IMG/VR virus record: IMGVR_UViG_3300032116_000031
Location: 1 to 64,000 of that record
Source of the DNA: a virus
Direction: 5' to 3' (one strand)
DNA length: 64,000 bases
A program made the position numbers and the translations under genes. Numbering within the stretch: the stretch's first letter is position 1; every line of letters begins with the position of its first letter. The notes under the pieces were generated by a model. That model had not been told where the DNA came from and made no database searches. It worked only from the letters and a program-made list of their open reading frames with translations. Below, piece by piece: positions 2 to 62,106 of the stretch.

Positions 2-2962
2 TTGTTTTGGGATAATACAAATAAGCGGTTAGGAGTTGGCACTATATCTCCAAGTACAGCCTTTCACGTTCAAGGAGCAAGCACATTGGCTGGATTAACA
101 ACAGTATCTGGTGATATTAGACCTTCTGTAAATAACACCTATAACGTAGGTTCCTCGACATTAGGATTTCTTGGAATGTATGCCTCAAATAGTGGTATTT
201 GGTATTTTGGTAGTGCTGAATTTGCAAGGCGCGGAGGTTCTGGAGGTGTAGAATTTTCCACAGCTGGCAATAATTTAACAATTTTTAATTCAGACAGAAC
301 GGCCGAAATCGGAAGATTTACAAGCACGAATAGAAATTTATTATTAGGTACTACTTCCGATGTTGCGCGCTTGCACGTCGTAGGCTCTGGAACCAGCTCC
401 TCAACTTGGACAGCCCAATTTCACAACAGCGCAGGGAATAACAACGCGCTTATGATACGCGATGATGGGAATATCGGTATTAACACTAATACCCCTAACG
501 CACGGTTGCAGGTTCAAGGTGCTGATACAAGCAATTCAAATTGGACGGCGCAATTCCATAACTCCCTCGGAAATAGCAACTCCTTAATGATCAGAAATGA
601 CGGGAATGTGGGGATTGGTACAACAGGAACAACAGCGAGATTGGTTGTCAGAGCAAGCGGTTCTTCATCAGGTTCAACAGCTATGCTTGTTGAAAATAGT
701 GGAGGAACATCTATGTTAATGGTTAGAGAAGATGGTAATGTGGGGATTGGAACAAATACACCAAGTTTTAATTTAGAAGTTGTCGGCCAATCAAGGATTG
801 GGGGTAACTTTGATGTATCGACAAATACTTCTTTTTTTGTAACAGGGTCAAGGACTGATCGTAGAATTACAAATACTTTTACTGGTTCAATAACCAACTC
901 TGTAGGGTACTTTGCTGGCACTGTTGATATGAGAGGAAGTCAAGCATTTACAGCATTTAATGGAATGACATTTGCAGTAAATAACCAAAATACAAGCGCA
1001 AGTAATAATATCACAGCTGGCAATTTTACAGTAACAAATGACGCGGCAAATGCAGGATTGAGCAGAGGTATTGGAGTTGTAGGTAGATTTGTTAATTCTT
1101 CAAATGTTGCAGCTAATGATATTAGATGCGTTCAAGGCGATGTTAGCAATTTATTAACTGGAAGCACAATAAGTAATTTGTATTTGTATAGAGCTGAAGT
1201 GGCCTCTAATTTGGGGACAATAACAAACACATACGGTTATTTTGTTGGAGATATAACTGCTGGTACACAAGTTAATACACCTTATAGTTTCTATGCTATT
1301 GATCCAAATGCCTTTAACTATTTTGCGGGATCAACAGGTATAGGCACCACAACACCAGCGCAAACCCTTGACGTTGCTGGTACGATGCGTTTGACGGGAT
1401 CAACTGGAACGGGAACAACCTTAATGGCTAGGAATGCAGCTGGAGATGTTTCGGCTGTTACGGTTGGAAGTGGTTTGAATTTATCTAATAATACCTTAAC
1501 AGCAACAGGCGGTGGAACAGGGACTCTAACAGGTTCGGGAACAGCAACACAAGTTGCCTTTTGGGGTGGTACAACGGGTTCAACATCAACAGCTTTATCA
1601 GGAAGTTCAAGTTTATATTGGGATGGTATAAACAATCGTTTGGGGATAGGTACATCAACGCCTTCTGCACCCCTCACAATAAAAAGTTACGGTAATTCAA
1701 TTTCAACAAATGAAGCGTTTAGCATATTCAACAGTGCTGCAACACCATTAAATTTATTAACGGTACTTGAAAACGGTAATATTGGGATTGGTGGTCAAAC
1801 CTCACCTATCTATAAATTAGATATTTTAGGTAATCTTCGTTTGGGTACTTCATCTATTCAATTTGGTATCGGAGAAAGCGGTGGTAACAGCGTTATATTG
1901 GGCTCATTGACAAATCACCCCTATAGATTTATTGTAAATACAAATGAAGCTGCTCGTTTTACAACAGATCGTAATTTAAGTATAGGTGCGACTGGTTCTA
2001 CAGCTAGATTATTAGTTGTCGGTTCACAACCAAGTGGAACAACAACGTGGACGGCGCAATTCCATAATGCACTCGGAAATAGCAATTCTTTGATGATCAG
2101 AGATGATGGTAATGTGGGGGTTGGGACAAGTACCCCTAATTTTAAATTAACAGTCCAAGCAAATGATGCTGGTTTACTTGTAAGTGGTGCTAACGTATCT
2201 CCTTTCACTCAAATCATTGCTAGTTTTGTTTACGGAGGAAACGGTAATACTATAAATGTAGAAAATAGGGGTGGTAGAGCATCTTTTCAAGCGAGAGCAA
2301 CTACAGCAGTAGGAGCAGCTGCATCTCCTTTGTTTTTAAACCCAAATGGAGGAACTGTTAGTGTTAATAACGATAATCCAGATGCTTCTGCTATTTTTGA
2401 TGTTAGAAGTACCACACAGGGCTTCCTCCCACCGAGGATGTCAACAGCTAATAGGAACTTAATTTCATCCCCTGCAACAGGTCTTCAGGTTTATAATAGC
2501 AGTTTAAATGTGATGCAGCATTATAACGGTGTATCATGGGTAAATGAAGCTAATCCTATATTAACTCGTGTTTCCACTGGTACAACACAGGTTGAGTTGT
2601 TTTTGGACGGCGTTTCTTCACGGTTTGGTCTTGTGGGTACCAATAAGGTTTGGAATTTTAGAATACAATTATGTGCTATTGTCGCTTCCGCTGGAACAGG
2701 AACTTTAGATATAGCTGATTCTTATATATCCGAACATTTAATCGGAATAAAAAGATCAGGTTCAAGCATTAATGTTGTTGGCGGCGGCGTTGTTCAAAAT
2801 TTAATCGGCGCGAATACACAAATGGAAGATTCTGTTGTAACAATAACGGGCGATAGCGGAACCGAATCCATAAGGGTGTTTTATACCCCGCCTTCGGGTG
2901 CCGCTGCAAATACGGTTATAAGAATAAGTGCAACATTATATTATACCGAAGCTGGTGTGTAG
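2..2962 (+). CDS. Tail-fibre/adhesin-like protein 1 (5'-truncated by window edge)
   Basis: 986-aa Gly/Thr/Asn/Ser-rich ORF with repeated GNVGIGT, WTAQFHNS..NSLMIR.DG and TLDVAGTMRLTGSTGTGTTLMARNA modules. It ends with a GFLPPRMST..RN.I..PA.GL.VYN segment typical of Bacteroidota/phage fibre proteins. Confidence 0.75.
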   Translation: MFWDNTNKRLGVGTISPSTAFHVQGASTLAGLTTVSGDIRPSVNNTYNVGSSTLGFLGMYASNSGIWYFGSAEFARRGGSGGVEFSTAGNNLTIFNSDRTAEIGRFTSTNRNLLLGTTSDVARLHVVGSGTSSSTWTAQFHNSAGNNNALMIRDDGNIGINTNTPNARLQVQGADTSNSNWTAQFHNSLGNSNSLMIRNDGNVGIGTTGTTARLVVRASGSSSGSTAMLVENSGGTSMLMVREDGNVGIGTNTPSFNLEVVGQSRIGGNFDVSTNTSFFVTGSRTDRRITNTFTGSITNSVGYFAGTVDMRGSQAFTAFNGMTFAVNNQNTSASNNITAGNFTVTNDAANAGLSRGIGVVGRFVNSSNVAANDIRCVQGDVSNLLTGSTISNLYLYRAEVASNLGTITNTYGYFVGDITAGTQVNTPYSFYAIDPNAFNYFAGSTGIGTTTPAQTLDVAGTMRLTGSTGTGTTLMARNAAGDVSAVTVGSGLNLSNNTLTATGGGTGTLTGSGTATQVAFWGGTTGSTSTALSGSSSLYWDGINNRLGIGTSTPSAPLTIKSYGNSISTNEAFSIFNSAATPLNLLTVLENGNIGIGGQTSPIYKLDILGNLRLGTSSIQFGIGESGGNSVILGSLTNHPYRFIVNTNEAARFTTDRNLSIGATGSTARLLVVGSQPSGTTTWTAQFHNALGNSNSLMIRDDGNVGVGTSTPNFKLTVQANDAGLLVSGANVSPFTQIIASFVYGGNGNTINVENRGGRASFQARATTAVGAAASPLFLNPNGGTVSVNNDNPDASAIFDVRSTTQGFLPPRMSTANRNLISSPATGLQVYNSSLNVMQHYNGVSWVNEANPILTRVSTGTTQVELFLDGVSSRFGLVGTNKVWNFRIQLCAIVASAGTGTLDIADSYISEHLIGIKRSGSSINVVGGGVVQNLIGANTQMEDSVVTITGDSGTESIRVFYTPPSGAAANTVIRISATLYYTEAGV

Positions 2963-3018
2963 TGGGGTGGACGGCGAAATATATAAAAACTAAATAAAAA
3001 AAACTATAAACATATAAC

Positions 3019-6000
3019 ATGGCAAATATAATAAATTTTCCTTCTGGAAAGGTTGGTATAGGGACAGAAAATCCCCAACAAACCCTTGATATCGCTGGAA
3101 CATTACGTTTATCGGGTTCGACGGGAACGGGAACAACATTGATGGCAAGAAACGCATCGGGTGATGTTTCCGCTGTTACTATCGGTGTCGGATTAAATTT
3201 ATCAAATAATAGCCTGACCGCAACGGGCGGCGGAACGGGTACGGTTTCGGGTTCGGGAACCGCAACCCAAATCGCTTTTTGGGATGGTGCAACGGGCACA
3301 ACATCATCATCCCTTGCAAGCAGCGCAAATTTATATTGGAATAATGTTAATAGCCGTTTGGGTGTGGGTACCAATACTCCCACAAGAACATTAGATGTAG
3401 TAGGTGATTTATCTATTGGTTCATCACACAAGTGGACTATCTCTTCTAATATTTTTTCTCTTCCAAATAGCACAAATGCTTTTATAAGCCTACAAAGTGA
3501 TAGGTATTTGAATATAACTAATTCAAGTTCCACTGTTGGTATAATATCCTTCGATCATAATAATCGTAATACTTTTATAGGTAATAGAATTTCAAATCCA
3601 ATCACGGAGGCTAGATTAGTTGTGGCTGGTTCTGGTATTACAGCAGCAGGGTGGACGGCGCAATTCCATAACAGCGGTGGTACAAATAACTCTTTAGTGA
3701 TAAGAAATGACGGTAATGTTGGTGTAGGTACTGTTGATTTAAACTCTCGTCTTCAAGTTCAAGGCGCTGATACAAGTGATACGGGGTGGACGGCGCAATT
3801 CCATAACTCCCTTGGAAATAGCAATTCCTTAATGATCAGAAATGACGGGAATGTGGGGATTGGAACAACAGGAACAACGGCAAGGTTAATAATACAAGGT
3901 ACGGGATCTAGTAGTGCAGCTACAATGGCTGTTGTAAATAGTGGTGGAACTAATTCATTAAGAGTTCTTGACAACGGATCTGTTTTAGTTAATTTAACAA
4001 ACGCTAGTTCTCCGATCACACTATTTGAAGTTAATAGTAGAGGTAGATTTTGGGGTGGTATTGAATTAGGTGGTTTTGCTATTGCTAGAATCGACGGGTC
4101 AGGTAACTATTTTAAAAATGTAACTGGGTCTAACGGCTTCGGTTTTTATAATACATCTGGTTTTAACGGTACAATCGGGCAATTTTTTTGGTCCGAATTT
4201 AGTACAAATATTAACCCTACGTCTGGTTCAGCTGAATTTAGTGTACTTAAATTATCTCCAACTTTTAATTTAAGTGGCACTGCTGCAACAACTGTAATAG
4301 GTTTAGATTATAATCCAGTCATAAATTCAATAGTTAACGGTAAAAATTATGCAGCTCTTTTTCGTTCTGGTTCTGTAGGTATTGGTACATCAACACCAGT
4401 GCAAACCCTTGACGTTGCTGGTACGATGCGTTTGACGGGATCAACTGGAACGGGAACAACTTTAATGGCTAGGAATGCGGATGGTGATGTTTCGGCTGTT
4501 ACGGTCGGAAGTGGTTTGAATTTATCTAATAATACCTTAACAGCAACAGGTGGTGGAACGGGTGCGGTTTCTGGTTCGGGAACAGCAACACAAATCGCTT
4601 TTTGGGGTGGTACAACGGGTTCAACATCAACAGCTTTATCAGGAAGTTCGAATTTATATTGGGATGGTATAAACAATCGTTTGGGGATAGGTACGTCAAC
4701 ACCTGCTGCTAGATTAGATGTTGGTAATGGGGTTATAGGTATAACAGGGTCGATTGGTTTTACCAATAATAGTAGAATGATCACATTTAATGATGCTAAT
4801 AACGGGATGCTTTATACTGGTTTTGGAGGTCATAGGTTTTCAGTTTTTAATCAGACAACTTATCAAAACGCTTTAGTTATAACAGGAAATAGTCCCACAC
4901 CAAATGTAGGTATAGCAGTTGAAGCACCTGTAGCAAGATTACAGGTTCAAGGATCAGATACAAGTGATACGGGGTGGACGGCGCAATTCCATAATTCTCT
5001 TGGAAACAACAATTCCTTAATGATCAGAAATGATGGAAATGTTGGGGTTGGTACAAGTGGTACGACAGCAAGATTTGTTGTCAGAGCAAGTGGTTCTTCA
5101 ACTGGTTCAACAGCTATGCTTATTCAAAATAGCGGTGGAACTACTTTATTAAGAGTTAGGGAAGATGGAAATGTTGGGATTGGTACAGCAGAACCAACTA
5201 ATAGACTTTATGTTGACGGTTCAACTTACGTAGGTAGCTTAACTGTATTAGGAGGCATAAACAGTATTACTGGTAGTATATTTTTAGCTAGCGCTAGATC
5301 TATCCAATTTGGAAGTAATACTTCTATTATAGGACAAGATGGTAGTTCTGGTTTTATTAGATATACAGTTAATAACAATGAAATATTTAGAGCAACTACA
5401 ACATCTATAGGCATAGGCACCATAACACCAGCGCAAACCCTTCACGTTGCTGGTACGATGCGTTTAACTGGATCAACTGGAACGGGAACAACCTTAATGG
5501 CTAGGAATGCAGATGGGGATGTTTCGGCTGTGACGGTTGGAAGTGGCTTGAATTTATCTAATAATACCTTAACAGCAACGGGTGGTGGTAGTGGAACTGT
5601 TTCTGGTTCGGGAACAGCAACACAAGTTGCCTTTTGGGATAATACAACTTCTTTAGCAGGTAATTCCAATTTGTATTGGGATAATGTTAATAGCCGTTTG
5701 GGTGTGGGGATTACAACACCAACATCAAATCTTGATGTTGTCGGTTCTGTGGAATTTCAAAACCCTTCAACTGCTTTTGATGGGGGTGTTTTGGGGTCAG
5801 AATTGTTAACCACAGGTACAGGTACAAACTGGACTGGGACAAGTTTCGCTACGGGTTATCTTCATGCTACTGGTAGTACTGTTGCTTTGGTGTCATCTGC
5901 TTCTATTTCAAATGGACAATATTATCAGGTTGTCGTTACAGTATCAGGAAGAACAACTGGTAGTATAACATTCAGTATCGGTGGCTATACCAGTTCAAGT

Positions 6001-7881
6001 ATCAGTACAAATACAACTACAACAGTAGGACCTTTTACTACTAGTACAGCTAGCTTTACAGTGACACCAACAAACGATTTTGATGGTACTGTTTTAGCAT
6101 CTGTAAAAGTAATAACTGCTGGTTCAGCTTCTTTTGTTGGTAAAAATAGTGCTGGAACAATAGTTTACGAGGAGAGATTGAGCAATTCAACTACAAATAT
6201 TTTTCAAGGTATTAATGCTGGACCAAGAAATACTACTGGGCTTAATAATATCTTTATAGGACCTTCAGCTGGTAATTCAAATACTACAGGTAATAATAAC
6301 CTTTTTATCGGACTCAATGCAGGATTAGTTAATAGTATTGCAAATAATAACACTTTTATAGGAACTTCAGCTGGTTTTTCAAATACTATTGGAGATTCTA
6401 ATACTTTTATAGGTGCTGGAGCTGGAGTTAATAATACATCTGGATCTAATAACTTCTTTTTAGGTAGAAATACAGGTCTTTCAAATACTATAGGTGTTAA
6501 TAATTTATATATAGGAACATTTTCAGGTGTCTTTTCAGTAAGTGGAGGCAGCAATGTTTATTTAGGTGGAAATACAGGTCGTAATAATGTTGGTGGGTCA
6601 AGTAATGTATTAATTGGTTTAAATGCTGGTAGATATTATAGTGAGTCTACTTTAGATGATACTTCTATAAATAACAGTATTTTTATCGGTGCAGAAACTA
6701 GATCAACTTTATCTGGTCAAACAAACCAAATTATTATTGCAAATAATGGTCGCGGCCTTGGATCCAATACAACCGTTTTAGGAAACACAAGTACGGTTCA
6801 AACCCACCTACACGGTAATCTTACTCTTGGATCAACATCTTCACCTACTGCAAGAATGGTAGTTGTTGGTTCTGGAAGTAGTAATACTGGGTGGACGGCG
6901 CAATTCCATAATGTTCTCGGTAATAGCAACTCTTTGATGATTAGAGACGATGGTAATGTGGGGTTTGGGACTGATGCACCTACTGGTAAAATAGATGCTA
7001 GATCTGATTCAGGTGTTATTGCTTTTTTTGGAGTTGCAAATGGAGGTACTAGACTTTCAGTTAATTCAAATGGCAGAGTTGGTTTAGGTTTAGTTGGGTG
7101 GATTCCAACGACAGACGGAGGACAAAATATAACCACGGGAGCAGGCGGCTGTTTTATTGGTTATGATGCAAGTGGAGATTTAGCATATACTAATGTTGCA
7201 AGCGTTACATTAGGAAGGCCATTGAATAGACTGTTAAATGCAACAACAAATACTCAAAGGATGGTAGATATTGTGGGTAATTTTTCTCCCACAAGCGGAA
7301 ATGCCACTTTTTATGATTTAGGTATTATTCCAATAATAAACCAAACAGGGGGTGCGAGTGGTATAACAAGAGGGGTATTCGTAAACCCAACACTTACAGC
7401 AGCAGCTAATTGGAGATCAATTGAATGGACAAATAACAGTGGCTTTGGTTTATATGGTTCAGGCACCGCAACCAACTATCTTGCAGGATCTTTGGGAATA
7501 GGAACCGATGCCCCAGCGCAAACCCTTCACGTTGCTGGTACGATGCGTTTGACTGGATCAACTGGAACTGGAACAACCTTAATGGCTAGAAATGCGAATG
7601 GGGATGTTTCGGCGGTTACATTGGGCACGGGCGTTGTATTATCCAATAATGTTATATCGGTTGCATTATCCCCGAAAGCGGAAACCCCAAGCGGTTTGGT
7701 TAATGGTTCCAATATAACATATACATTGGCATCCACACCTATAGCAAACCAAAGTGTGATGGTATTCTTAAACGGTGTTGCTCAATATAATGGTATTGAT
7801 TACACTGTAAGCGGAACCACGATAACGTTTGGAACAGCGCCCGCGAATGGATCAAGCATATTTGCATATTATATGGCGTAG
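3019..7881 (+). CDS. Tail-fibre/adhesin-like protein 2
   Basis: 1620 aa with the same modules, an N-x-x-G beta-roll repeat (NTTGxNNxFIGxxAG, ~6200-6790) and a C-terminal VFLNGVAQ..GIDYTVSGTTITF..AP domain common in phage fibre proteins. Confidence 0.75.
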   Translation: MANIINFPSGKVGIGTENPQQTLDIAGTLRLSGSTGTGTTLMARNASGDVSAVTIGVGLNLSNNSLTATGGGTGTVSGSGTATQIAFWDGATGTTSSSLASSANLYWNNVNSRLGVGTNTPTRTLDVVGDLSIGSSHKWTISSNIFSLPNSTNAFISLQSDRYLNITNSSSTVGIISFDHNNRNTFIGNRISNPITEARLVVAGSGITAAGWTAQFHNSGGTNNSLVIRNDGNVGVGTVDLNSRLQVQGADTSDTGWTAQFHNSLGNSNSLMIRNDGNVGIGTTGTTARLIIQGTGSSSAATMAVVNSGGTNSLRVLDNGSVLVNLTNASSPITLFEVNSRGRFWGGIELGGFAIARIDGSGNYFKNVTGSNGFGFYNTSGFNGTIGQFFWSEFSTNINPTSGSAEFSVLKLSPTFNLSGTAATTVIGLDYNPVINSIVNGKNYAALFRSGSVGIGTSTPVQTLDVAGTMRLTGSTGTGTTLMARNADGDVSAVTVGSGLNLSNNTLTATGGGTGAVSGSGTATQIAFWGGTTGSTSTALSGSSNLYWDGINNRLGIGTSTPAARLDVGNGVIGITGSIGFTNNSRMITFNDANNGMLYTGFGGHRFSVFNQTTYQNALVITGNSPTPNVGIAVEAPVARLQVQGSDTSDTGWTAQFHNSLGNNNSLMIRNDGNVGVGTSGTTARFVVRASGSSTGSTAMLIQNSGGTTLLRVREDGNVGIGTAEPTNRLYVDGSTYVGSLTVLGGINSITGSIFLASARSIQFGSNTSIIGQDGSSGFIRYTVNNNEIFRATTTSIGIGTITPAQTLHVAGTMRLTGSTGTGTTLMARNADGDVSAVTVGSGLNLSNNTLTATGGGSGTVSGSGTATQVAFWDNTTSLAGNSNLYWDNVNSRLGVGITTPTSNLDVVGSVEFQNPSTAFDGGVLGSELLTTGTGTNWTGTSFATGYLHATGSTVALVSSASISNGQYYQVVVTVSGRTTGSITFSIGGYTSSSISTNTTTTVGPFTTSTASFTVTPTNDFDGTVLASVKVITAGSASFVGKNSAGTIVYEERLSNSTTNIFQGINAGPRNTTGLNNIFIGPSAGNSNTTGNNNLFIGLNAGLVNSIANNNTFIGTSAGFSNTIGDSNTFIGAGAGVNNTSGSNNFFLGRNTGLSNTIGVNNLYIGTFSGVFSVSGGSNVYLGGNTGRNNVGGSSNVLIGLNAGRYYSESTLDDTSINNSIFIGAETRSTLSGQTNQIIIANNGRGLGSNTTVLGNTSTVQTHLHGNLTLGSTSSPTARMVVVGSGSSNTGWTAQFHNVLGNSNSLMIRDDGNVGFGTDAPTGKIDARSDSGVIAFFGVANGGTRLSVNSNGRVGLGLVGWIPTTDGGQNITTGAGGCFIGYDASGDLAYTNVASVTLGRPLNRLLNATTNTQRMVDIVGNFSPTSGNATFYDLGIIPIINQTGGASGITRGVFVNPTLTAAANWRSIEWTNNSGFGLYGSGTATNYLAGSLGIGTDAPAQTLHVAGTMRLTGSTGTGTTLMARNANGDVSAVTLGTGVVLSNNVISVALSPKAETPSGLVNGSNITYTLASTPIANQSVMVFLNGVAQYNGIDYTVSGTTITFGTAPANGSSIFAYYMA

Positions 7882-7886
7882 TGAGA

Positions 7887-7945
7887 GGGTGGACGGCGAA
7901 AAATAAAATAATAAATCCGCCGTCCACCCCATTTTCGCCGTCCAC
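7887..7945. repeat. Cluster of three motif copies forming an inverted repeat (possible hairpin/terminator or operator)
   Basis: GGGTGGACGGCG (7887-7898) pairs with CGCCGTCCACCC (7918-7929). A third copy, TTTTCGCCGTCCAC (7932-7945), pairs with 7889-7902. Confidence 0.85.
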
Positions 7946-7948
7946 ACC

Positions 7949-7956
7949 TATTTATA
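7949..7956 (+). promoter_or_regulatory. Putative phage late promoter element TATTTATA
   Basis: TATTTATA lies 22 bp upstream of the fibre-3 ATG. The same or a similar element precedes several other genes on their coding strand. Confidence 0.5.
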
Positions 7957-7978
7957 AAAAAAACCTTTTTCATAAAAA

Positions 7979-10900
7979 ATGCCACAAAATAAAATAAGAA
8001 CAGAAGATATTGTTGATTCGCAAATAACCTATGCGAAGATACAAAACGTATCCAATAATAATCTATTATTGGGAAGAAATACAGCAGGAGCGGGGCTTAT
8101 AGAAGAATTAAATGCAGCCACCGCAAAAGCAATATTGGCGTTAAATAATGTTGAAAATGTCGCATTATCAACATGGACAGGTTCAACAAATATTAATACC
8201 CTCGGAACCATCACCCAAGGAACATGGTCGGGATCCACAATATCCATTGATAAAGGCGGAACAGGGCTTAATACCTTGGGAACCGCAAATCAGGTGCTTG
8301 CCGTTAATTCGGGAGGAACCGCCCTGCAATATGTTACACCATTAAGCGGAACAGGTACAGCAGGACAGGTTACTTTTTGGACAGGAACAAATTCTCAAGG
8401 GGGGGATAATGGTTTGTTTTGGGATAATACAAATAAGCGGTTAGGCGTTGGCACAAATGCACCAGCGCATAGACTACAGATTTTAGGGCCTAGTGCAAGG
8501 TTTGAGAACTCGAGCGGAACATTTGAGTTTGATATTGTTGGAGGAGGTACGACCTCACGCATACAAACAACAGCGACAGGCATGGCTTTGGGAACCTTAT
8601 CAAATAACGCTTTGATTTTTTGGATGAATGCGAGCGAAAGAATGAGAATTAATTCATCAACTGGACACGTCGGTATAAACCAAACAGCACCAGCAGCCCG
8701 CCTTCACGTAGTAGGATCCAGCACAGGCACGACGGCTTGGACCGCACAATTCCATAACAGCGGTGGTACAAGCAATTCCTTGATGATCAGAGATGATGGG
8801 AATATTGGTATTAACACTAATACCCCTAACGCACGGTTGCAGGTTCATGGTGCTGATACAGCAGATACAGGGTGGACGGCGCAATTCCATAATTCCCTCG
8901 GAAATAGCAATTCCTTGATGATCAGAAACGACGGTAATGTGGGTATTGGAACAAATGCACCAGCAGCTAAATTAGAAGTGGATCCAATTGTAAATCAAAC
9001 AGGTATTCTTGTAGCAGGATATAGTCTTACTGGTTCAAGCACTATACCTGCAATTGATATCACAGGTGCTTGGAATACTAGTGGTATAGCAACATTAATT
9101 AGAGGAAATCTAACAAATAATGTTTCAGCTGCTACTAGTAGGCTTATAGATTTACAGGTAAGTGGCACAAGCCAATTTAGGGTTTTACCTAACGGTACTA
9201 TTAATGGATCAGAACTTATAGGGCAATTGAGTGGAACTATAGCAGTTAGATCTAATTTAACTAATGTTGCAGGTAATTATGTAACTATAGATAATAATAG
9301 TTCAAATATTACCACTACAACAGGTATAGTTAGTGGTGTTATAATACGATCATCTTATATTCCACCAAGCGGTACTGGAGTGTTTGTTGGATTAAATTTA
9401 AACCATACAATCAATCAATCAAGTGGAAGTGGTTCGACTGGGATAACAAGGGGGCTTCTTGTAAATCCCGCGTTAACATCTGCTTTTGATTGGAGATCAA
9501 TTGAATGGACAAATAATACTGGTTGGGGTTTGTACGGTTCTGGTACAGCAAATAACTATTTGGCTGGTAACTTGAGTGTGGGTACAAGTGGAACAACGGC
9601 TAGATTGGTTGTTAGAGGTAGTGGTGCTACATCAGGTTCAACAGCTATGCTTGTTGAAAATAGTGGAGGAACATCTATGTTAATGGTTAGAGAAGACGGT
9701 AATGTGGGGATTGGAACGAATGCACCAACTACTCGTTTAGATGTCAGCGGAACGGCAAGAGTACAGGGGACGACTACAATAACACCCGCTGCTAATACTT
9801 CAGCTATTACAAGTACTGGATATTCTGTTACAGGTAGTGATACAACAAGAATGATTGATCTATCTGGCACATGGAATACGACTGGGAATGTTACTGCTAT
9901 TAATTTGGATATAACTAATACAGCAAGTGGTGTTAATTCTAATTTAATTAATTGTTCTATAAATGGAACAACAAATATTTTTTCAGTAAGAAGAACAGGT
10001 GAAGTTGCTGTACAAAATTTATATTCGTTTCATTCAAGTAACGGAACACTTTCTGCAACTTCAACACTCACAATACAAACGGCTGCATCGCAAACAGGAG
10101 GTATTTTTTTAAATAAAAGTGCTTCTGTTACTGCTACATCTGGAGATTTTCCTACAATAACTTTAAATAATATATCAAATTCATTTGCTCCTACAAGTGG
10201 TACTGCTACATTTACTTCTATAAGAGCCATACCTACTATCAACCAAACAGGTGGGGCAAATGGTATAACAAGAGGGATAATCGTAAGCCCCACATTAACA
10301 TCTGCTTTTGATTGGAGATCAATTGAATGGACAAATAGTTCTGGTTGGGGTCTTTACGGTGAAGGCACCGCAAATAACTATTTAGGAGGTAATTTAAGTG
10401 TTGGTACAACAGGGTCAACAGCTAGATTGGTGGTGGTTGGTTCTCAACCAAGTGGAACGACAACATGGACAGCTCAATTCCATAATGCCCTTGGAAACAG
10501 CAACTCTTTGATGATCAGAGATGACGGAAATGTGGGTATTGGAACGAGTACACCAACATCAAGACTTGATGTTGTGGGTACGGTTGAATTTCAAAATCCA
10601 TCGGCGGCTTTTGACACCCCGTCTTTTGGATCTGAACTGTTAACTACAGGTGCAGGTACAAACTGGACTGGAACAAGTTTTGCTAGTGGATACACACACA
10701 CTACTGGTAGCACCGCAGCTTTAACTAGTGCATTTACACCTTTAAATGGTCAAATTTATAGAGTTGTAGTAACTACTACAAACCTTATATTTGGTCAAAG
10801 TGTTACAGTTACTTTTGGAGGAGTTTTAGATCAAACAATTACTTCTAATACAACAATTACTTTTGATAGTAGAACAATTAATACATCTGCTTTAGTAATT

Positions 10901-13467: not shown

Positions 13468-13479
13468 TGGACGGCGAAA

Positions 13480-14519: not shown

Positions 14520-15449
14520 TTACCAATTAATTTTATTTCTTATTTCTATTAACAATTTATGTGTAAATTCTTCATCGACTTGATCTGGGATATTAAGCCT
14601 ATCTATTTCGCCGTCCAACCTCTTAATCCTCTTCTCCAATTCATTAATCAATTCAATATGATCCACGTTACCGTTTCTAATATCAATCAATTCTTTTCTA
14701 TTATCCCTGTAAACTTTCATCGAACCAGTATTAATTAATTCCTCCAATGAATCCAAAATCCTTTTAGCGTGCATTAAACTTTTGCCGTCCACCAACAAAC
14801 CATTATCGTCAACAACATTCCTGACCCCTTGAAAAAACAAATAACCAACAGGCGTTTCTCCTTTGGGGATATAAGAAGAATAAATTCCACCTATATCTGA
14901 AATAATCCCCTTATATAGTTTTGTTTTCTTATAATATAATGGAAAACTGCTTTTATTCTCATAATCCTTACAGAAAAGACCTAAATTGTTAATATCATAA
15001 CCATTCAATTTTAAGAAATCATTTAGAGGCATTTCTTTACCATCAAGGGTTATAACAAAGGCCAAATCAAACATATTCTTAATCTTTGACTTCTTAATGT
15101 TTTGAACCGCCATTCCAATAAAGGCATTCTTTATTTTTTTGGTAATAAAGATATTTCTGTTCTCAATTAACAAATTGAAAACAGGGTCCTTGTGTAAAAT
15201 AAATCTATCATCAGTGAAAAGCATCTCTAATAGAGATGGATTACCGCTTTTAAGCAATTGAATAAATCGCCTAATTTCATAACCAACATAATCCTTATTG
15301 ACATTTATTTGCTCAACATATTTAAACCCAAGTATGCTTTCTGGGTGTTGAATGTATACAAATTTTTTGTCAACATCAGAAGTGATAATGTCAGTGTTGT
15401 AGCTAACGCTACCAGTAATTGATTCGAATAATATTTTTTTATCTTCCAT
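14520..15449 (-). CDS. Pol-beta-family nucleotidyltransferase (RlaP/NrdC.11-like)
   Basis: GS.SY.....SDVD catalytic motif, YEIRRF..LL..GNP..LE.L and K.LMHA.R.L...IRNG. Confidence 0.75.
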   Translation of the reverse strand: MEDKKILFESITGSVSYNTDIITSDVDKKFVYIQHPESILGFKYVEQINVNKDYVGYEIRRFIQLLKSGNPSLLEMLFTDDRFILHKDPVFNLLIENRNIFITKKIKNAFIGMAVQNIKKSKIKNMFDLAFVITLDGKEMPLNDFLKLNGYDINNLGLFCKDYENKSSFPLYYKKTKLYKGIISDIGGIYSSYIPKGETPVGYLFFQGVRNVVDDNGLLVDGKSLMHAKRILDSLEELINTGSMKVYRDNRKELIDIRNGNVDHIELINELEKRIKRLDGEIDRLNIPDQVDEEFTHKLLIEIRNKINW

Positions 15450-52425: not shown

Positions 52426-53208
52426 TTAACCTTCATATGTTATATGTCTGTCTTCACTGAAGAAATATTCTTTTTTTGCTAAGTCTTGATAAAATTTAAT
52501 TTCAAGTTTATCCAAAGAATCATAGTATGCCGTTAGGCTACCTTCTCTCTTGATTCTATGTCTAACCATTAATTTAGGTATTACCATTACTTCGGATAGC
52601 TGATTCAAAATCCTCAAGAAATATTCGTATTCAAAGTATTTTTTGATACTATGTTTATATCCGCCATTATCAATAAATTCAGCTGTTTTGTATATAGCTG
52701 ATGTAAAGGAGAACAAGGACATTTTCTTCAATGTTTCAAAATCCAAATACCCTTGTTTATCTGTATAATTCATACTCCATGCTAATTCATTCACCATATT
52801 AGTAAAGGATTCGCCGTCGAACTCCAAGTTAATAGGAAGGAATACTGATACATTTGGATATGCTTTTGAATACTCTTCTGTGTATGTTACAAAGGTATTA
52901 TTTAATACGTCGTCATATTGTAGTACGGTGAAGTAGGGCGTGGATATGGAGGTTTGGACGGCGAAATTAATGACCTCCGTATAATTTGGATAAAGTTCCC
53001 TCAATTCCTCTGGAAGATCAAGGAAGTTTAATTTCAAGCCAAATGTATTGGATGCTTCTACTTGCTTTTTCAAATCCGCAAAAGTAGCAACCAATATATC
53101 GAAGTCTTTACTATCTTGTTTAGCCAATGACTCAAACATTTCTATAATATAGCTATCTTCGACATCTAGCTTATGAATTGGTATAATTACTGTTAATTTA
53201 TTGCTCAT
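52426..53208 (-). CDS. GT-A (family 2-like) glycosyltransferase
   Basis: LTVIIP, S...Q, N.A.....TPYF.VL..DD motifs. Confidence 0.75.
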   Translation of the reverse strand: MSNKLTVIIPIHKLDVEDSYIIEMFESLAKQDSKDFDILVATFADLKKQVEASNTFGLKLNFLDLPEELRELYPNYTEVINFAVQTSISTPYFTVLQYDDVLNNTFVTYTEEYSKAYPNVSVFLPINLEFDGESFTNMVNELAWSMNYTDKQGYLDFETLKKMSLFSFTSAIYKTAEFIDNGGYKHSIKKYFEYEYFLRILNQLSEVMVIPKLMVRHRIKREGSLTAYYDSLDKLEIKFYQDLAKKEYFFSEDRHITYEG

Positions 53209-54301
53209 CTTGATATTTTTTAATTGTTAGATTTACTTTTTCGATTTTGCTTTCAAAAATCCTATTAAAGGTTGCTTTTGTTTGATTTGTAAAGTTTTGT
53301 TCGTTGTATGGCTCCACTGTTTTTTGCATGTTGTCATACATCTGCTGTGGAACATCACCCAACAGCCAATTCTCAACAAAACGTGCTATATAATCAGGTA
53401 TCGCTAAAATATTAGATAGATACACCGCATTATCACTCAATTTGATATTATCTCCTTCGATATTTTCAGCCCATTCTGGGATTAAATCTGGAATTTTAAC
53501 AATTACAGGAACTCCTGATTTCATTGACTCCAAGGGAAATGTACCAAAGGTAGCGTAATCATCAATCCAAATAGATAAACAAGTTTCTTTTAGTGCCTCT
53601 GCAAAACTTTCTTTAGGTAAATTACCAAGGGTTTTAAAAGAGAACCAAGAATACATAGGATATTTTTGGTAGAATAGTTTTGCTACTCTTTCCAAGTCGT
53701 CTTGATTTCTACTGATAATTGATATTATTGGTTTTTGTGGAAGGGTGGACGGCGAAAAGACATCCGAAATGGCGGGATTAATAACGTAAGTATTTTTAAC
53801 AGGTTGATATTCAGCTAAAAAAGTTTTCATCTTATTAGATGTTGTAATAGCATGATCCACACCATAAAAACTCCAACCTTCGCCTGCATTCATATATTTG
53901 AAAATAAATGAGTGAGATTGACAAATTACTACTGTATCAGAAGGAAGTTTACTCTCCCAAAGCTTTTTAATTAAGTCAGCATATAGCTCTGGAATAAAAA
54001 AAGTATCGGAACCGTTAATTTGATACTCTGGATTATTATTCATTGTCGTGATTGAAATATGCTTCAACGAGGAATATCTTTCACCCATCCAATTCTGAAC
54101 ACCGACAAATTTTTCCTTTTCGTGTAACATAATGACCTTGTACCCTTCATCATCCATTATACCTGCTATCTTGTATATGTATTCAATTGAAGCCATTGGA
54201 GTGCCATTAGTGTCGGCGACAAAAAAGAATAATCTTCCTTCCTTATTCTCTATTTTGCCCCTTAGCTCTACCAATTTTTCTATTATTTCTTTATTTTCCA
54301 T
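53198..54301 (-). CDS. GT-B (family 4-like) glycosyltransferase
   Basis: C-terminal FG.FPLE.M.SGVPVI motif. Confidence 0.7.
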   Translation of the reverse strand: MENKEIIEKLVELRGKIENKEGRLFFFVADTNGTPMASIEYIYKIAGIMDDEGYKVIMLHEKEKFVGVQNWMGERYSSLKHISITTMNNNPEYQINGSDTFFIPELYADLIKKLWESKLPSDTVVICQSHSFIFKYMNAGEGWSFYGVDHAITTSNKMKTFLAEYQPVKNTYVINPAISDVFSPSTLPQKPIISIISRNQDDLERVAKLFYQKYPMYSWFSFKTLGNLPKESFAEALKETCLSIWIDDYATFGTFPLESMKSGVPVIVKIPDLIPEWAENIEGDNIKLSDNAVYLSNILAIPDYIARFVENWLLGDVPQQMYDNMQKTVEPYNEQNFTNQTKATFNRIFESKIEKVNLTIKKYQDEQ

Positions 54302-54968: not shown

Positions 54969-56536
54969 AGTATTACGATATAATTTTTTAATTTATGTTT
55001 ATATTCTATAATTTTTGGTTGTAAGACTTCCACAAAGTCCCTGTTTATTCTTTGAATTTTATCGGGATTTTCATCTCTTGTAAGCGATTCGTAATGATAA
55101 CATACAGCATCTCCTTGATAGAAGTTAGTTTTATCTTGTTTAGCTAATATATCTAAATTCAAAACTACATCTTCAAAACATTCAACTGTGTTTTCATTGA
55201 AGCCATTTACCTTTTCAAATAGTTTTTTGTTGACCAACAAAAAGGCCCCAGTTGATCCCACCATGTTTGAAGACAGTTTACTGTTGAAGGAATAATAACT
55301 TTTCAAACCATAATGAGAAGCGCCTATTCTTTTGGCTTTATCAACATATAAAATAATACCTGCATGTTGGATTCTTAAATTAGGATATAATAGTCTACAT
55401 CCAACCGTACCGCACCTGTGCTTGTTTTTTTGATACGTTAAAACCATTAAATCAAGGGCGTTGTTGATTAATTGAATATCATTATTACAGAATAATAATA
55501 GTTCTTCGTCATTAAAATAAGTTTTAATTAATTCATTGTTATTTTTTGCAAAATTATAGTAGTCTAATTGATGAATTTTTAATTTAATATTCTTATGATC
55601 CAACGCGGTTATTTGTTCGACATATGAATTTAAAGCAAGTAAAGACTCTTCAGATGAACCAGTATCGCCAACTACTATATTAAGATTAATGTTTTTATTT
55701 GTTTTCTTGATTAAAGAATTAATACATTTAATCAAGTAATCTATTTTATCCTTAGTTAAAATAACAACACCGACGGAAACACTATTCACCTGTACAGGAT
55801 TTATTTTTGCTATGTCTGTTAAATTAGGTCTGGTTTGGATAGGTAAGAGATCTTGATACATTTCCAAAAATACATTTCGATTAAAATACCAAGAATTAGA
55901 TACTTGACCTATACTTTTATGGTGAATTTTAAATGAAGTGGTTACACCTATTTTAACTCCTTCTAAAAAGTTTTCTACACTAAAACAAACGTCATAAAAG
56001 TGGAAACCTTTTATCTTTTCATTGAAGTTCTTCTTTATCCTATCTTTTTTCAGAGCAATAAAAACGCCGTCCAACACACAAACATTCATCACAAAATCAT
56101 GATGACTAGAAAATTCAGAATCATATTTTACTAGTTTACCATTAATTTCTCTTTCGTGAGAAACAATTCCAGCTAAGTCAGCCCTATTCTCCCACCAAAT
56201 ACCACTTTTATTTAAAGAGGTTGCTCCAGCTAATCCAATAATTCCATAATCAGTTGTTTCAAATATCTCTATTATTTTTTCATCCCACCCTTTAGGTAAA
56301 ACAATATCATCGTGGGCTAAAACTAATATCTCATCTTCCCCACACATATCCAAAGCTTTATTGTAAGCTTGTGTTAAAGAATATTGATTATCATTTTCAA
56401 ATTCAACAATCCTAACATCAGTTTTCAAAGAATTTAATATCTTTTTCCGATTTTCTTCTGATTTTTTTCTAGTACTATAAAAATAGAGCATATTTATATT
56501 TGAGTAATCTATAAGTTTTTTTAAACATTGTTGCAT
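54965..56536 (-). CDS. Two-domain GT-A glycosyltransferase
   Basis: Domain 1: AYN.A...HDD, G.IG.AG, LDG.F, FHFYD. Domain 2: VVILT, GDTGS, NFAK.NN, NNDI, QHAG, TGA.L, EDV.L, H.ES.TR. Confidence 0.85.
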   Translation of the reverse strand: MQQCLKKLIDYSNINMLYFYSTRKKSEENRKKILNSLKTDVRIVEFENDNQYSLTQAYNKALDMCGEDEILVLAHDDIVLPKGWDEKIIEIFETTDYGIIGLAGATSLNKSGIWWENRADLAGIVSHEREINGKLVKYDSEFSSHHDFVMNVCVLDGVFIALKKDRIKKNFNEKIKGFHFYDVCFSVENFLEGVKIGVTTSFKIHHKSIGQVSNSWYFNRNVFLEMYQDLLPIQTRPNLTDIAKINPVQVNSVSVGVVILTKDKIDYLIKCINSLIKKTNKNINLNIVVGDTGSSEESLLALNSYVEQITALDHKNIKLKIHQLDYYNFAKNNNELIKTYFNDEELLLFCNNDIQLINNALDLMVLTYQKNKHRCGTVGCRLLYPNLRIQHAGIILYVDKAKRIGASHYGLKSYYSFNSKLSSNMVGSTGAFLLVNKKLFEKVNGFNENTVECFEDVVLNLDILAKQDKTNFYQGDAVCYHYESLTRDENPDKIQRINRDFVEVLQPKIIEYKHKLKNYIVIL

Positions 56537-56634: not shown

Positions 56635-56868
56635 ATGAAATGGTTCACACTTGACATTTTGCGTCAAATTTTAATGGTAGCAGGCGCTATCGCAGTAGGT
56701 ATGGGTTGGAAAGACCAAGAATCAGTAAATATGCTTATCGGTATTCTTATGTCGGTTGCTGGTGCTGTTTGGCAACTTTTTGATCACAGCGCTGTCCAAG
56801 AAGAAGTTAGAAGTTTGAAGGAAGAGGTTAGAAGCTTCAGAGAGTTGAAGCCTACTAGCAAGAAATAA
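56635..56868 (+). CDS. Small two-TM protein, putative holin
   Basis: RQIL...GA...G and IG..MS..G.VW helices with a charged C-terminus; own upstream TATTTAT element and terminator. Confidence 0.55.
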   Translation: MKWFTLDILRQILMVAGAIAVGMGWKDQESVNMLIGILMSVAGAVWQLFDHSAVQEEVRSLKEEVRSFRELKPTSKK

Positions 56869-60375: not shown

Positions 60376-61563
60376 CTACAAAAGATTTCTATAAATTTCT
60401 GCTCTAATTTTAGTGGTGTCATCTAAATTGAAATTCTTAAAAACATATTGGTAGAGATTTTCTCCCATATCTATTCTCATTTGTTCCGATTCCACTAACT
60501 GCTTAACATATTTCATCCAATTTTTATGCTCTTTTCTGGGATCAACTATTAGGCAATTTTTTTCATGTTCGCCGTCCAAATAAGGCTGAACCCCACTAAC
60601 GATAATGGGCTTCTTCTTAACTCCAGCCTCAAGCATCTTTAAATTACTCTTATAATAATTGAATTTATTATCTTGTAAAGGGGCAAGAGCAATATCGATT
60701 TCATCATAAGATTGACAATATGAATTAATAGGTTTAGTCCATACACGCTTATATTTCATTTGATTCTGATAAGGATAAGGATCTTGAATGAACTCGTGAA
60801 GATACTCTATGAATTTATTGTCTTTAAAAGCATAGTTATCAGTAAACTCTATTTCCATTTTATGCCAAACAGAATTCAAAGCTGTTTCCCTAGCACTATT
60901 GAAGCCACATAACTGCATTTGGATATTCTTATTCATAGTAGAAGACATTACGCCTCTTAACAACTTAATATCTTCCAAATGAGAAGATCCAGCTACATAT
61001 CCAATATTCACAGTTTCATGTGGAATACTATTTATCTGATACTGTTTTTCTTTAAAATTAATAGAGTTAGGCAAGCAAACCACATTCTTATTATACTTTC
61101 TTAAAACATCAACAAAAAATTCTGATGTAGTAGTCACTAAATCTGCTTTCTTAATTGCAGCTAAGGTTTTCTCTTTGAGTTTGATATTTTTTGCAATTGC
61201 ATAATAAGGATGTAAAGCATGATATTCAAAATAATCATCAATATCGACAATTAATTTAATCCCCATGGATTTATATATATCCGTTTGTCTTCCGATAGCT
61301 TCTATTTGCTCTATCACTGAATGATAAAATATCGCGTCAAATTTTTTAACTCTTTCGGTATTTAAAATTTCTCTATCTTCTGCTAATTCAATGTAAAACT
61401 CATCTTTAAATAAGGTTTGGAGCTTAATGTGTGGATCAGATATTCTGTATTTATTGATACCTGAACTAGGGTCATTTAAAAGGAATACTAAAATTTTTTT
61501 TATATTTCTCGACATACAAATTATTTTTAGCAAATATAATAAAAATTGAAAAAGATAACTCAA
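60376..61563 (-). CDS. GT-B glycosyltransferase (likely start 61515)
   Basis: YRI..P, DIDD, ADLVT.TS..., PNSI, IG..A.SSH..D and DIALAPL..N.FN..KS.LK.LEAG motifs. Confidence 0.85.
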   Translation of the reverse strand: MSYLFQFLLYLLKIICMSRNIKKILVFLLNDPSSGINKYRISDPHIKLQTLFKDEFYIELAEDREILNTERVKKFDAIFYHSVIEQIEAIGRQTDIYKSMGIKLIVDIDDYFEYHALHPYYAIAKNIKLKEKTLAAIKKADLVTTTSEFFVDVLRKYNKNVVCLPNSINFKEKQYQINSIPHETVNIGYVAGSSHLEDIKLLRGVMSSTMNKNIQMQLCGFNSARETALNSVWHKMEIEFTDNYAFKDNKFIEYLHEFIQDPYPYQNQMKYKRVWTKPINSYCQSYDEIDIALAPLQDNKFNYYKSNLKMLEAGVKKKPIIVSGVQPYLDGEHEKNCLIVDPRKEHKNWMKYVKQLVESEQMRIDMGENLYQYVFKNFNLDDTTKIRAEIYRNLL

Positions 61564-62106
61564 AAATTTTTATTATTTAGTGGTTTTAGATATTCTTTTT
61601 ATAACGGAAGATCCCTTAATAAACATTGTATAGGGGAATTCACTGTACTGTGGAATTGTGTATATAGACTTCCTTATTATAGGTTTGATTATGAGTTGGA
61701 CGGCGAAATAGAAGAAGAAATAATCGCATTTAAAACAATTGGCTGCTGGATTATTATTTCCAACAGCCAAATACATAAAATCAACTACGAGGAAGAATTA
61801 TTAAACCTTAATCTACCTATTAAAAAAGATAATGAAAACTACGAATTTGTCTATATAATAAATTCGGCGATAGGATATAAAATAGGTAGAACTAAAAACA
61901 TTGATAATAGAAGTGCAATTTTTAATGTTAAATTGCCGTTCGAATGGTCTTTCTATGATATTCACATCGTAAAAGACTCAAAACGAGTTGAAAAATTGTT
62001 CCATTTGGTTTTCAAGAATAAAAGAATAAACGGAGAATGGTATGACCTAAACGCGGAAGATCTAAATGATATTAAACGCTTTTTACAAACTCCATATTCC
62101 CCTTAA
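61546..62106 (+). CDS. GIY-YIG nuclease (T5orf172/MUG113-like)
   Basis: FVYII...YKIGRT....R...E..H..F..KR..GEWY; true start uncertain. Confidence 0.75.
   Translation: MKKITQKFLLFSGFRYSFYNGRSLNKHCIGEFTVLWNCVYRLPYYRFDYELDGEIEEEIIAFKTIGCWIIISNSQIHKINYEEELLNLNLPIKKDNENYEFVYIINSAIGYKIGRTKNIDNRSAIFNVKLPFEWSFYDIHIVKDSKRVEKLFHLVFKNKRINGEWYDLNAEDLNDIKRFLQTPYSP

Follow-up and report, generated by a model that had tools for sequence, protein, structure and literature searches.

A strand-oriented DNA word dispersed through the genomes of a clade of freshwater phages, possibly read by a phage-encoded primase-helicase

What does it signify when one and the same nine-letter word is written dozens of times into a phage genome, on both strands and mostly inside genes? 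The question is raised by the first 64,000 nucleotides (hereafter, the window) of the IMG/VR virus record IMGVR_UViG_3300032116_000031, a single contig of 136,214 bp (G000; GC content 31.5%) that is approximately 41% complete according to CheckV. In the window, the word TGGACGGCG occurs in its exact form 36 times, 23 times on the plus strand and 13 times on the minus strand, between positions 542 and 61705; this exact recount agrees, down to the coordinates, with the initial annotation of this DNA, in which the word was taken for a tag that is read along the whole phage chromosome. Here we argue that the word is a selected, oriented DNA signal that is present on both strands, is private to the phage among the sampled genomes and is independent of transcription. 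Much more tentatively, we propose a phage-encoded protein that might read it.

In 100 dinucleotide-preserving shuffles of the window, the word appeared on average 0.06 times and never more than once, and its excess over the expectation from base composition is about 870-fold. The whole contig contains 67 copies, 39 on the plus and 28 on the minus strand, which makes TGGACGGCG the most frequent 9-mer of the contig, ahead of AAAATAAAA with 49 copies. The widest gap between neighboring copies in the window is 4,784 bp (from 18468 to 23252), within the ceiling of about 5 kb that had been given before. Copies with one mismatch are somewhat more numerous than the five reported initially: there are 7 of them in the window, all on the minus strand. 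The contig has 17, where base composition would predict 3.2, and of these 17, 7 deviate at the last G and 4 at the second base. The GC content, initially estimated at about 30%, is indeed 28–32% over most of the window, in keeping with the value for the contig, but this estimate does not hold for the first 12 kb, where the GC content is 38–40%.

Does this excess reside in the proteins or in the DNA itself? On a crude map of open reading frames (ORFs), which yields 124 genes that cover 97% of the contig, 61 of the 67 copies lie within genes and 6 are intergenic. The genic copies fall into five frame classes: in the sense orientation, 28 copies read [LV]-D-G-[EVD] in frame 1, 7 read W-T-A in frame 0 and 2 read G-R-R in frame 2, and in the antisense orientation, 16 read S-P-S-[TN] in frame 1 and 8 read A-V-[HQ] in frame 2. 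The codons of the word are rare in this genome: GAC accounts for 18% of the Asp codons, GGC for 13% of the Gly codons, CCG for 7% of the Pro codons, GTC for 7% of the Val codons and TCG for 5% of the Ser codons. When synonymous codons were permuted within genes, so that the proteins and the codon usage of each gene were kept, 200 shuffles retained a mean of 6.48 copies (maximum 9), 6 of which are the intergenic copies that such a permutation cannot alter. Set against this codon-usage-preserving shuffle, the comparison which the initial annotation had chosen in advance as decisive, the 67 observed copies uphold the claim of enrichment.

A longer common sequence is found in just 7 of the 67 copies, namely those within the duplicated modules of three fibre ORFs, where the word precedes CAATTCCATAA and is read as part of G-W-T-A-Q-F-H; the flanks of the other 29 copies of the window are unrelated, which is the partition given initially. 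Outside the fibre modules, the copies are alike only within positions -20 to +11. In view of these flanks and of the five frame classes, a repeat family, a mobile element, a protein motif and a duplicated module were all ruled out as the origin of 60 of the 67 copies. Across these 60 copies, taken from the whole contig, the extended consensus proposed initially was recovered, with G at -2 in 43 copies, G or T (K) at -1 in 59, and A at +9, +10 and +11 in 45, 49 and 39 copies, respectively. Over the stretch from -20 to -1, C is depleted: G amounts to 31–35% and C to 4–10%, as compared to a background of 14–19% for each, and this holds alike for sense, antisense and intergenic copies, with the DNA from -40 to -21 and the DNA downstream showing the background composition. 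The element thus comprises about 32 nt, namely, 20 nt that are G/T-rich and poor in C and A, then G-K-TGGACGGCG, then AAA. Since the asymmetry of the flank is the same in sense, antisense and intergenic copies, the element is asymmetric independently of the coding orientation, which suggests that a single strand is being read.

Is the word peculiar to this assembly? Relatives were sought in IMG/VR by the family B DNA polymerase (PolB), by a 14-mer scan and by the primase-helicase described below, the last of these routes yielding contigs G798 and G799, in which that protein is 58% identical. Ten related, independently assembled contigs carry the word. Among them, G001 (34.1 kb) has 13 copies, G002 (71.8 kb) 34, G003 (24.4 kb) 16, G004 (13.3 kb) 7 and G005 (6.7 kb) 3, with a count of zero for the reversed control word in each of these five; G798 (66.2 kb) has 49 copies, of which a synonymous shuffle leaves 2.3, and G799 (44.7 kb) has 42, of which it leaves 3.0. 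Depending on the lineage, the density ranges from one copy per 2 kb up to one per 1.1 kb. In addition, at least half of the words sampled from the stretch 36001–46000 of the window are present in 13 public sequencing runs. Together with the ten independent contigs, these 13 runs dispose of an assembly or adapter artefact, which the initial annotation had named as the other way in which its claim might fail. Altogether, 20 runs from 15 studies contain all or part of this stretch, under metagenome labels that include freshwater, wastewater, subsurface and 'fungus', and none of them is listed as an RNA run. One run (coded X3; 45 million letters) harbors a strain that is about 99% identical over positions 32001–52000 of the window, with word depths of 450–750 along the contig.

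The sites are conserved not merely in number but in place. In DNA alignments to G000, 27 of 31 sites are exact in G002 at an overall identity of 78.6%, with 0.115 expected per site, as are 7 of 8 sites in G003 at 70% identity and all 12 of 12 in G001; the shorter alignments gave 4 of 5 (L122), 3 of 4 (L049), 1 of 2 (G004), 1 of 2 (G005) and 0 of 1 (L125). When the comparison was anchored in proteins, so that a motif was counted if found at the same codon of the protein alignment, 15 of 24 sites were conserved in G798, a relative with approximately 58% identity at the protein level, 10 of 16 in G799, 8 of 9 in G003, and 28 of 36 in G002, where the misses mainly concern paralogous fibre modules. 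Those sites that were lost in relatives deviate by 2–7 bases, never by 1. At the site 40817, for instance, G000 has GCG TTG GAC GGC GTT and G002 has GCT TTA GAT GGT ATT, so that L-D-G is kept and the codons are changed. Block conversion was considered as an explanation of such all-or-none losses and rejected: at 70–79% identity, synonymous positions are near saturation, and sites released from constraint would drift this far anyway. The presence of exact sites at the same positions in diverged relatives indicates that the sites are old and have been kept by purifying selection at fixed places on both strands across a clade of T4-like freshwater phages. Among the most deeply conserved copies is the one at contig position 66980, in the PolB gene (contig 66750–70838, 1362 aa), where it falls within some 390 residues on the N-terminal side of the exonuclease domain, a part without a Pfam match.

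Taken together, the spread over several frames and both orientations, the use of rare codons and the positional conservation indicate a signal that is selected as DNA and is neither a protein motif nor a repeat family, and substantiate the view of a dispersed tag along the whole phage chromosome.

Does the word belong to the phage or to its host? The host-genome scans covered Bacteroidota, including Flavobacteriaceae. In 401 Flavobacteriaceae genomes, the 9-mer was found at or below the level of the reversed control, with a single outlier, and in 401 Bacteroidota genomes, the 12-mer (the word followed by AAA) reached at most 5 copies in any genome, which is no more than the control. The outlier, a metagenome-assembled genome (MAG) from Flavobacteriaceae (G281; 1.6 Mb, 53% GC), contains 53 copies, versus 2 of the reversed control, scattered over about 40 contigs; at the 20 places inspected, the copies lack the flanks and mainly correspond to V/L-D-G or A-V-H codons, so that this excess is attributable to GC content and codon choice and not to the phage signal. 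This genome stands as a caution for the matching of phages to hosts by k-mers. The 14-mer scan of IMG/VR returned at least 115 stretches; among the matches listed, all single hits were in higher-GC DNA and all low-GC loci with multiple copies were relatives of the G000 phage. With no enrichment in either set of 401 genomes, a host word was not found, and the word is, among the genomes sampled, private to the phage and not a host Chi or uptake signal, as one of the two outcomes envisaged initially would have it. By the reasoning of the initial annotation, presence in the phage alone speaks for a reader encoded by the phage rather than for imitation of a Chi or uptake signal of the host.

These results bear directly on the possibility that the phage carries an uptake signal or some other word of its host genome, in the manner of the DNA uptake sequences (DUS) of Neisseria or the uptake signal sequences (USS) of Pasteurellaceae. 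The form of the word would suit such an origin: it has an exact 9-mer core beside an A-rich flank, it occurs in both orientations and in several frames, and two inverted copies make a terminator-like hairpin (-30.1 kcal/mol, z -6.78 against 200 shuffles; Table 1). However, with no sampled genome enriched and with the low-GC multi-copy carriers in IMG/VR, among the matches listed, all being relatives of the phage, we consider this origin highly improbable. The presumption of a Bacteroidota host, for its part, is not borne out. The best tblastn matches of the baseplate wedge protein, 27–29% identical, are in Microcystis phage Mel-JY01, an uncultured 484-kb phage and Flavobacterium phage immuto, so that the nearest cultured relatives, recognized by a single protein, infect Flavobacterium and Microcystis; 50 kb each of immuto and Mel-JY01 contain no comparable dispersed word. 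A megablast search with 20 kb of the window against 50,697 phage records gave no match. Nor is there a copy of the word in 28 phage-like loci from MAGs that have an NrdB at 58–84% identity; five of these MAGs contain no PolB homologue, and the loci are not close kin and are uninformative on the host.

Is the word tied to transcription? Relative to the genes that it crosses, it lies in the sense orientation 37 times in G000 (30 times without the fibre copies) and in the antisense orientation 24 times, and the corresponding numbers are 23 and 25 in G798 and 20 and 20 in G799. This lack of preference argues against promoters, terminators, pause sites or any role at the RNA level. The same numbers count against one of the alternatives to be considered, namely that the word is a double-stranded binding site of a phage protein that organizes the DNA (as Noc, SlmA or ParB do), silences it in the manner of stoperators, or marks it as self against a nuclease or defence system of the phage or the host, possibly through a base modification. 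In number and density, the copies do resemble the 17-bp repeat of the Cluster O mycobacteriophages (more than 30 copies) and the Cluster A stoperators, according to PMC4351075. A word that is not enriched in the sampled bacterial genomes is what a self-mark requires, and modified DNA could be the reason why the phage has nucleotide-pool enzymes, namely, an HD-domain protein, a GMP-reductase-like protein and a MazZ-like protein fused to an NT5C-like part. Stoperators, which are bound by the phage repressor, nevertheless follow the direction of transcription (PMC4351075), unlike the word analyzed here. Furthermore, the site is non-palindromic, its 20-nt compositional flank is easier to reconcile with a reader of one strand than with a dimeric binder of double-stranded DNA, and the phage is T4-like and presumably lytic, with no repressor identified in an incomplete search of the ORFs. 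Binding as double-stranded DNA therefore strikes us as distinctly unlikely.

The distribution along each strand is less telling. Among the copies beyond the first 12 kb of G000, the gaps per strand are more even than random, both on the plus strand (n = 29, coefficient of variation 0.56, P = 0.0005) and on the minus strand (n = 26, coefficient of variation 0.67, P = 0.024), and the strands alternate more often than at random (36 runs, with an expectation of 28.4; P = 0.027). The contig has no switch point, and the density is about one copy per 4.5 kb on each strand. An orientation bias tied to the direction of replication, as is expected of Chi, was not seen in G000, where both strands are used throughout, nor was the strong skew toward one terminus that characterizes the FtsK orienting polar sequences (KOPS) and the SpoIIIE recognition sequences (SRS).

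The use of both strands also bears on the idea that the word is a nick motif, at each copy of which a phage nickase would cut one strand and leave single-strand interruptions in the virion DNA. A short, oriented, dispersed and phage-private word is in line with this idea. The nicks of T5 and phiKMV, however, are on one strand only, whereas the copies of the word are divided almost evenly between the strands, and nicking offers no clear reason for strict positional conservation inside genes; we regard it as improbable.

What kind of machine, then, could read such a word? The features described above would suit a phage-encoded machine that reads the word strand by strand, probably as single-stranded DNA. 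The candidate that we put forward, the product of what is the clade's most distinctive gene for replication, is a protein of 1367 aa encoded beyond the window (contig 104973–109076), in which a primase of the archaeo-eukaryotic primase (AEP) type, BT4734-like, appears to be fused to a superfamily 2 (SF2) helicase. It matches Pfam BT4734-like_N (E = 6e-11) and contains DEAD/ResIII helicase motifs. The structural model of residues 1–640 has a pLDDT (predicted local distance difference test score) of 87.8, and in Foldseek it matches enzymes of the AEP fold, namely, the LigD polymerase domain with a probability of 0.92–0.99 and Prim-PolC with 0.85; the E-values of these matches are weak because the query is multi-domain. 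Helical domains are predicted after the AEP-fold domain of this model. We propose that the word is the strand-specific priming or initiation word of this primase-helicase, a possibility that is missing from the list of functions in the initial annotation and that we now rank first, as a tentative proposal that falls somewhat short of being probable.

Under this proposal, the invariant core would be the recognition site, and the synthesis of DNA or RNA would start beside it, with the G/T-rich flank being copied. Each copy of the word would mark a possible start of a new strand, be it a lagging-strand primer or a restart primer, on either strand of the phage DNA. Because host DNA is without the word, priming would be restricted to the phage's own chromosome.

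There are precedents for such words. According to PMC8718748, AEP primases recognize a short template word by means of a helix-bundle domain, and synthesis begins at the base immediately 5' of that word; the template words are 5'-GTGG/GTGA-3' and 5'-TTTGGTTA-3' for the NrS-1 primase and 5'-GTG-3' for ORF904 of pRN1. For the T7 gp4 primase, PMC12839067 gives the site 5'-(G/T)2GTC-3', which requires a further 10-nt flank on its 3' side, and about 26 strong sites that serve the T7 genome. In the element described here, the invariant core has KTGG at its 5' edge, G/T-rich template on its 5' side and an A-run on its 3' side, and the sites occur on both strands, irrespective of genes and transcription, as is expected of primase sites.

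Among 23 homologues of the primase-helicase in a large protein set, some are 55–76% identical, others 48–49% or 36–37%; the homologue with 58% identity comes from the two IMG/VR contigs that have 49 and 42 copies of the word, and contigs in which the homologue is 30–35% identical, including G800 (184.5 kb) and G801 (61 kb), have none. A tblastn search with the primase-helicase against the 50,697 phage records gave no match. No match to Toprim_2 or Toprim_4 was found in G000, and none to Toprim_2 in G798, G800 and G801; immuto and Mel-JY01, which lack the word, have Toprim_2 matches in their annotated primase genes, the one in Mel-JY01 being below the family cut-off.

Several points weigh against the priming proposal. 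An invariant 9-mer with flanks would be unusually long as compared to the known primase words of 3–8 nt. On the 5' side of the core, where synthesis would be predicted to begin, most copies have G or T, which is not an obvious match to the usual start with a purine nucleotide. As the phage also encodes a DnaB-like helicase, replicative priming need not fall to the AEP-helicase, and, given how incomplete the contig is, a Toprim primase, a helicase-nuclease or some other reader may sit in the remainder. The word co-occurs equally with every other clade-specific gene and not with the primase-helicase alone. Finally, the evenness per strand is marginal in G002, most sites of which are common with G000, and lacks significance in G003, G798 and G799, and several copies are merely 33–130 bp apart; since evenness does not hold across the clade and close pairs exist, we give it little weight.

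The strongest case for another kind of reader comes from recombination. A helicase-nuclease, either the host AddAB/RecBCD or a phage enzyme, might halt degradation at the word on the 3'-ending strand, whereupon the G/T-rich 3' tail would load a RecA/UvsX-like recombinase, so that the genome would be protected and recombination-dependent replication seeded. An oriented word on both strands, repeated about every 4.5 kb per strand and evenly so in G000, would suit a circularly permuted genome whose ends can be anywhere, and the G/T-rich tract 5' of the core is found just where the tail of a Chi-type site is expected; RecA is known to prefer G/T-rich DNA. Genes for a RecA/UvsX-like protein and for a FEN-type 5'-3' exonuclease are also present in the phage, as is one for an SbcC-like protein with a putative Mre11/SbcD-type partner. 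A host Chi is, however, unsupported among the 401 and 401 Bacteroidota genomes sampled, in which the word is not enriched, and no AddAB/RecBCD-like gene was found among the approximately 60 of 124 ORFs that were scanned in the 136 kb of this incomplete contig. The 9–12 invariant bases, moreover, exceed the length of Chi sites, which to our knowledge are 5–8 nt long. On balance, a Chi-like role seems unlikely to us.

Returning to the primase-helicase, a more far-reaching version of the priming proposal can be envisaged, in which the phage uses a private 'replication code': the AEP primase-helicase would have replaced a DnaG-type primase and would start strands exclusively at a GC-rich 12-nt word with a G/T-rich template flank, so that priming itself would discriminate self from non-self, and sister clades would use other words. 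We view this extension with considerable doubt. Hints of other words in sister clades with diverged primase-helicases come from TTCAAAAGAA and TCTGAAGAA, which are enriched 4–9 fold over synonymous shuffles: there are 31 copies of TTCAAAAGAA in G800 against 7.6 after the shuffle, and 11 copies of TCTGAAGAA in L187 against 1.27. In G800, L187, L186, L192 and L193, the AT-rich words TTCAAAAGAA and (T)CTGAAGAA are elevated 4–9 fold over such shuffles, in several frames and in both orientations. These modestly enriched words of the clade with 30–35% identical primase-helicases may be weak 'dialects' of a strand word, which we mention as no more than a lead. Of a different nature are the most frequent k-mers of G800, which come from 69-bp tandem units that encode leucine-rich repeats (..LSSLPESIGNLQNLQ..) in genes located, for example, at 3852–4404, 6654–6999, 44339–45756 and 73899–74976.

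The copies of the word in the window, exact and with one mismatch, are listed in Table 1.

Table 1. Copies of the word in the window, with the associated hairpin (window positions; copies exact unless a mismatch is given)
Position	Strand	Context and reading	Gene or remark
542..550	+	fibre module G-W-T-A-Q-F-H, then CAATTCCATAA	ORF 2-2962
2048..2056	+	fibre module	ORF 2-2962
2604..2612	+	sense frame 1, L-D-G-V	ORF 2-2962
2968..2976	+	intergenic	directly 3' of the stop codon of ORF 2-2962
3652..3660	+	fibre module	ORF 3019-7881
3787..3795	+	fibre module	ORF 3019-7881
4975..4983	+	fibre module	ORF 3019-7881
6892..6900	+	fibre module	ORF 3019-7881
7881..7938	+	terminator-like hairpin from inverted pair 7890/7918, then CAUUUU	3' of the stop of the 1620-aa fibre gene
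7890..7898	+	intergenic	left hairpin arm
7918..7926	-	intergenic	right hairpin arm
7936..7944	-	intergenic	third copy, past the hairpin
8873..8881	+	fibre module	ORF 7979-11938; 2 mismatches at the orthologous place of G002
13468..13479	+	word + AAA	entire 12-nt gap between ORFs 13099-13467 and 13480-13710
14609..14617	-	sense frame 1, L-D-G-E	RlaP-like gene 14520-15449
14783..14791	-	one mismatch: last G to A	AAA follows
15963..15971	-	one mismatch: second base G to A	
16642..16650	+	antisense frame 1, S-P-S-N	HD-domain gene 16286-17155
17721..17729	-	sense frame 1, V-D-G-E	no word in G002 (7 mismatches)
18468..18476	+	antisense frame 1, S-P-S-T	
22001..22009	-	one mismatch: fifth base C to A	
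23252..23260	-	sense frame 1, V-D-G-E	
24074..24082	+	antisense frame 1	
26659..26667	+	antisense frame 1	SbcC/gp46-like gene 26318-28801
28543..28551	-	sense frame 1	SbcC/gp46-like gene 26318-28801
29939..29947	-	one mismatch: last G to A	
32521..32529	+	antisense frame 1	
33577..33585	-	sense frame 1, L-D-G-V	
33747..33755	-	one mismatch: last G to A	AAA follows
38243..38251	+	antisense frame 1	
38369..38377	-	sense frame 1	
39263..39271	+	antisense frame 1, T-P-S-T	
40817..40825	-	sense frame 1, L-D-G-V	G002 has common codons TTA GAT GGT for L-D-G
41721..41729	+	antisense frame 2, A-V-H	
45646..45654	+	antisense frame 2	baseplate wedge gene 45357-47174
46241..46249	-	sense frame 1	baseplate wedge gene 45357-47174
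48884..48892	-	sense frame 1	
52812..52820	-	one mismatch: second base G to C	
52955..52963	+	antisense frame 2	
53746..53754	+	antisense frame 1	
56065..56073	-	sense frame 1	
56790..56798	-	one mismatch: sixth base G to A	
60570..60578	-	sense frame 1	
61697..61705	+	sense frame 1	ORF 61546-62106 (+)

The carrier of the word is, to judge from its genes, a T4-like myovirus, presumably a lytic one. Approximately 60 of the 124 ORFs were scanned against Pfam or PHROGs. The contig encodes a Gp23-type capsid protein, a Gp20 portal, a sheath protein and baseplate wedge proteins, and, besides PolB, the DnaB-like helicase, the RecA/UvsX-like protein and the exonuclease already mentioned, a UvrD/Dda-like helicase, NrdB and an intein-split NrdA. 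The SbcC-like gene adjoins a gene for a calcineurin-like phosphoesterase, which is taken for the Mre11/SbcD-type partner. Positions 1–11938 of the window are occupied by three long fibre-like ORFs (986, 1620 and 1319 aa) on the plus strand, with repeated ..GWTAQFHN.. modules and with the GC content of 38–40% noted above, versus about 30% elsewhere; from 12 kb to 64 kb, the genes are mostly on the minus strand. A ferritin/Dps-like gene is located at 12290–12826. At 13703–14518, the N-domain of a MazZ-like dATP/dGTP diphosphohydrolase (PF18909, E = 2.7e-29) continues into a fused part that weakly resembles NT5C, and the gene of the HD-domain protein (16286–17155) is two genes away from it. Together with a GMP-reductase/IMPDH-like gene (contig 117291–118397), these genes may serve purine-pool manipulation or DNA base modification; no PurZ of the Z-genome pathway (PF00709) was found in the contig. 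Two pieces encode the large subunit of ribonucleotide reductase (contig 74639–78026); between them is an ORF without Pfam matches, and HINT/intein matches are found at the start of the C-terminal piece. Other genes of the contig code for a full TnpB/IS605 OrfB protein (115985–117265; HTH_OrfB_IS605, OrfB_IS605 and Cas12f1-like TNB) and for a protein of the CCA-adding/poly(A) polymerase family (121430–122593).

Why does the word matter? It is among the strongest sequence signals in a genome, being held through essential genes at the cost of rare codons and in relatives down to approximately 58% protein identity. Evidently, standard annotation can miss a DNA signal that is oriented by strand, is private to a large lytic phage and is of the type of Chi, uptake sequences or primase sites. 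Should the AEP primase-helicase prove to be the reader, this would be a directly testable case of long-word specificity in priming and of self-restricted replication; should the word be a nuclease-control or nick signal instead, it would concern the ways in which phages shield or process their genomes. In either case, fragments of this phage clade can be recognized cleanly in metagenomes by the word. Full-text searches of the literature for the word and its complement, with the supplements of papers outside their coverage, gave only primers and unrelated sequences, and nothing describing the word was found in the literature on over-represented phage motifs and on primase.

We class the word with those DNA words that are oriented and spread over whole genomes, among them uptake sequences, Chi and primase sites, and it remains to set it beside each of these. 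Like the uptake sequences DUS and USS, it has an exact core of 9–12 nt beside an A/T flank, lies in both orientations and in more than one frame, and includes inverted pairing of the terminator type; those sequences, however, fill the chromosomes of competent bacteria, whereas the word is confined to one phage clade. The mycobacteriophage Cluster A stoperators and the Cluster O repeat similarly come in tens of copies genome-wide, some of them inside genes. The word differs from them in being asymmetric, independent of the direction of transcription and within genes in 61 of 67 copies; the Cluster O repeat, according to PMC4351075, is palindromic, is of unknown function and has about two thirds of its copies outside coding regions. 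The nick motifs of T5, of phiKMV-like phages and of tf are likewise short, oriented, dispersed and phage-private. With the Chi sites of RecBCD and AddAB, the likeness extends to an oriented, short, over-represented and G/T-rich word that runs through coding DNA with a spacing of a few kilobases per strand, but Chi is a property of the host genome, and the word is not enriched in the 802 Bacteroidota genomes sampled and shows no strand switch along the contig. The primase sites of T7, NrS-1 and pRN1, finally, are also oriented, one-strand words that occur on both strands genome-wide, whatever genes they cross, with a G/T-rich template just 5' of the site and a contribution from the flank beyond the core. 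They differ in having 3–8 nt, as compared to 9 invariant bases within an element of about 32 nt here, and the word of the present phages is, in addition, enforced with rare codons and conserved by position.

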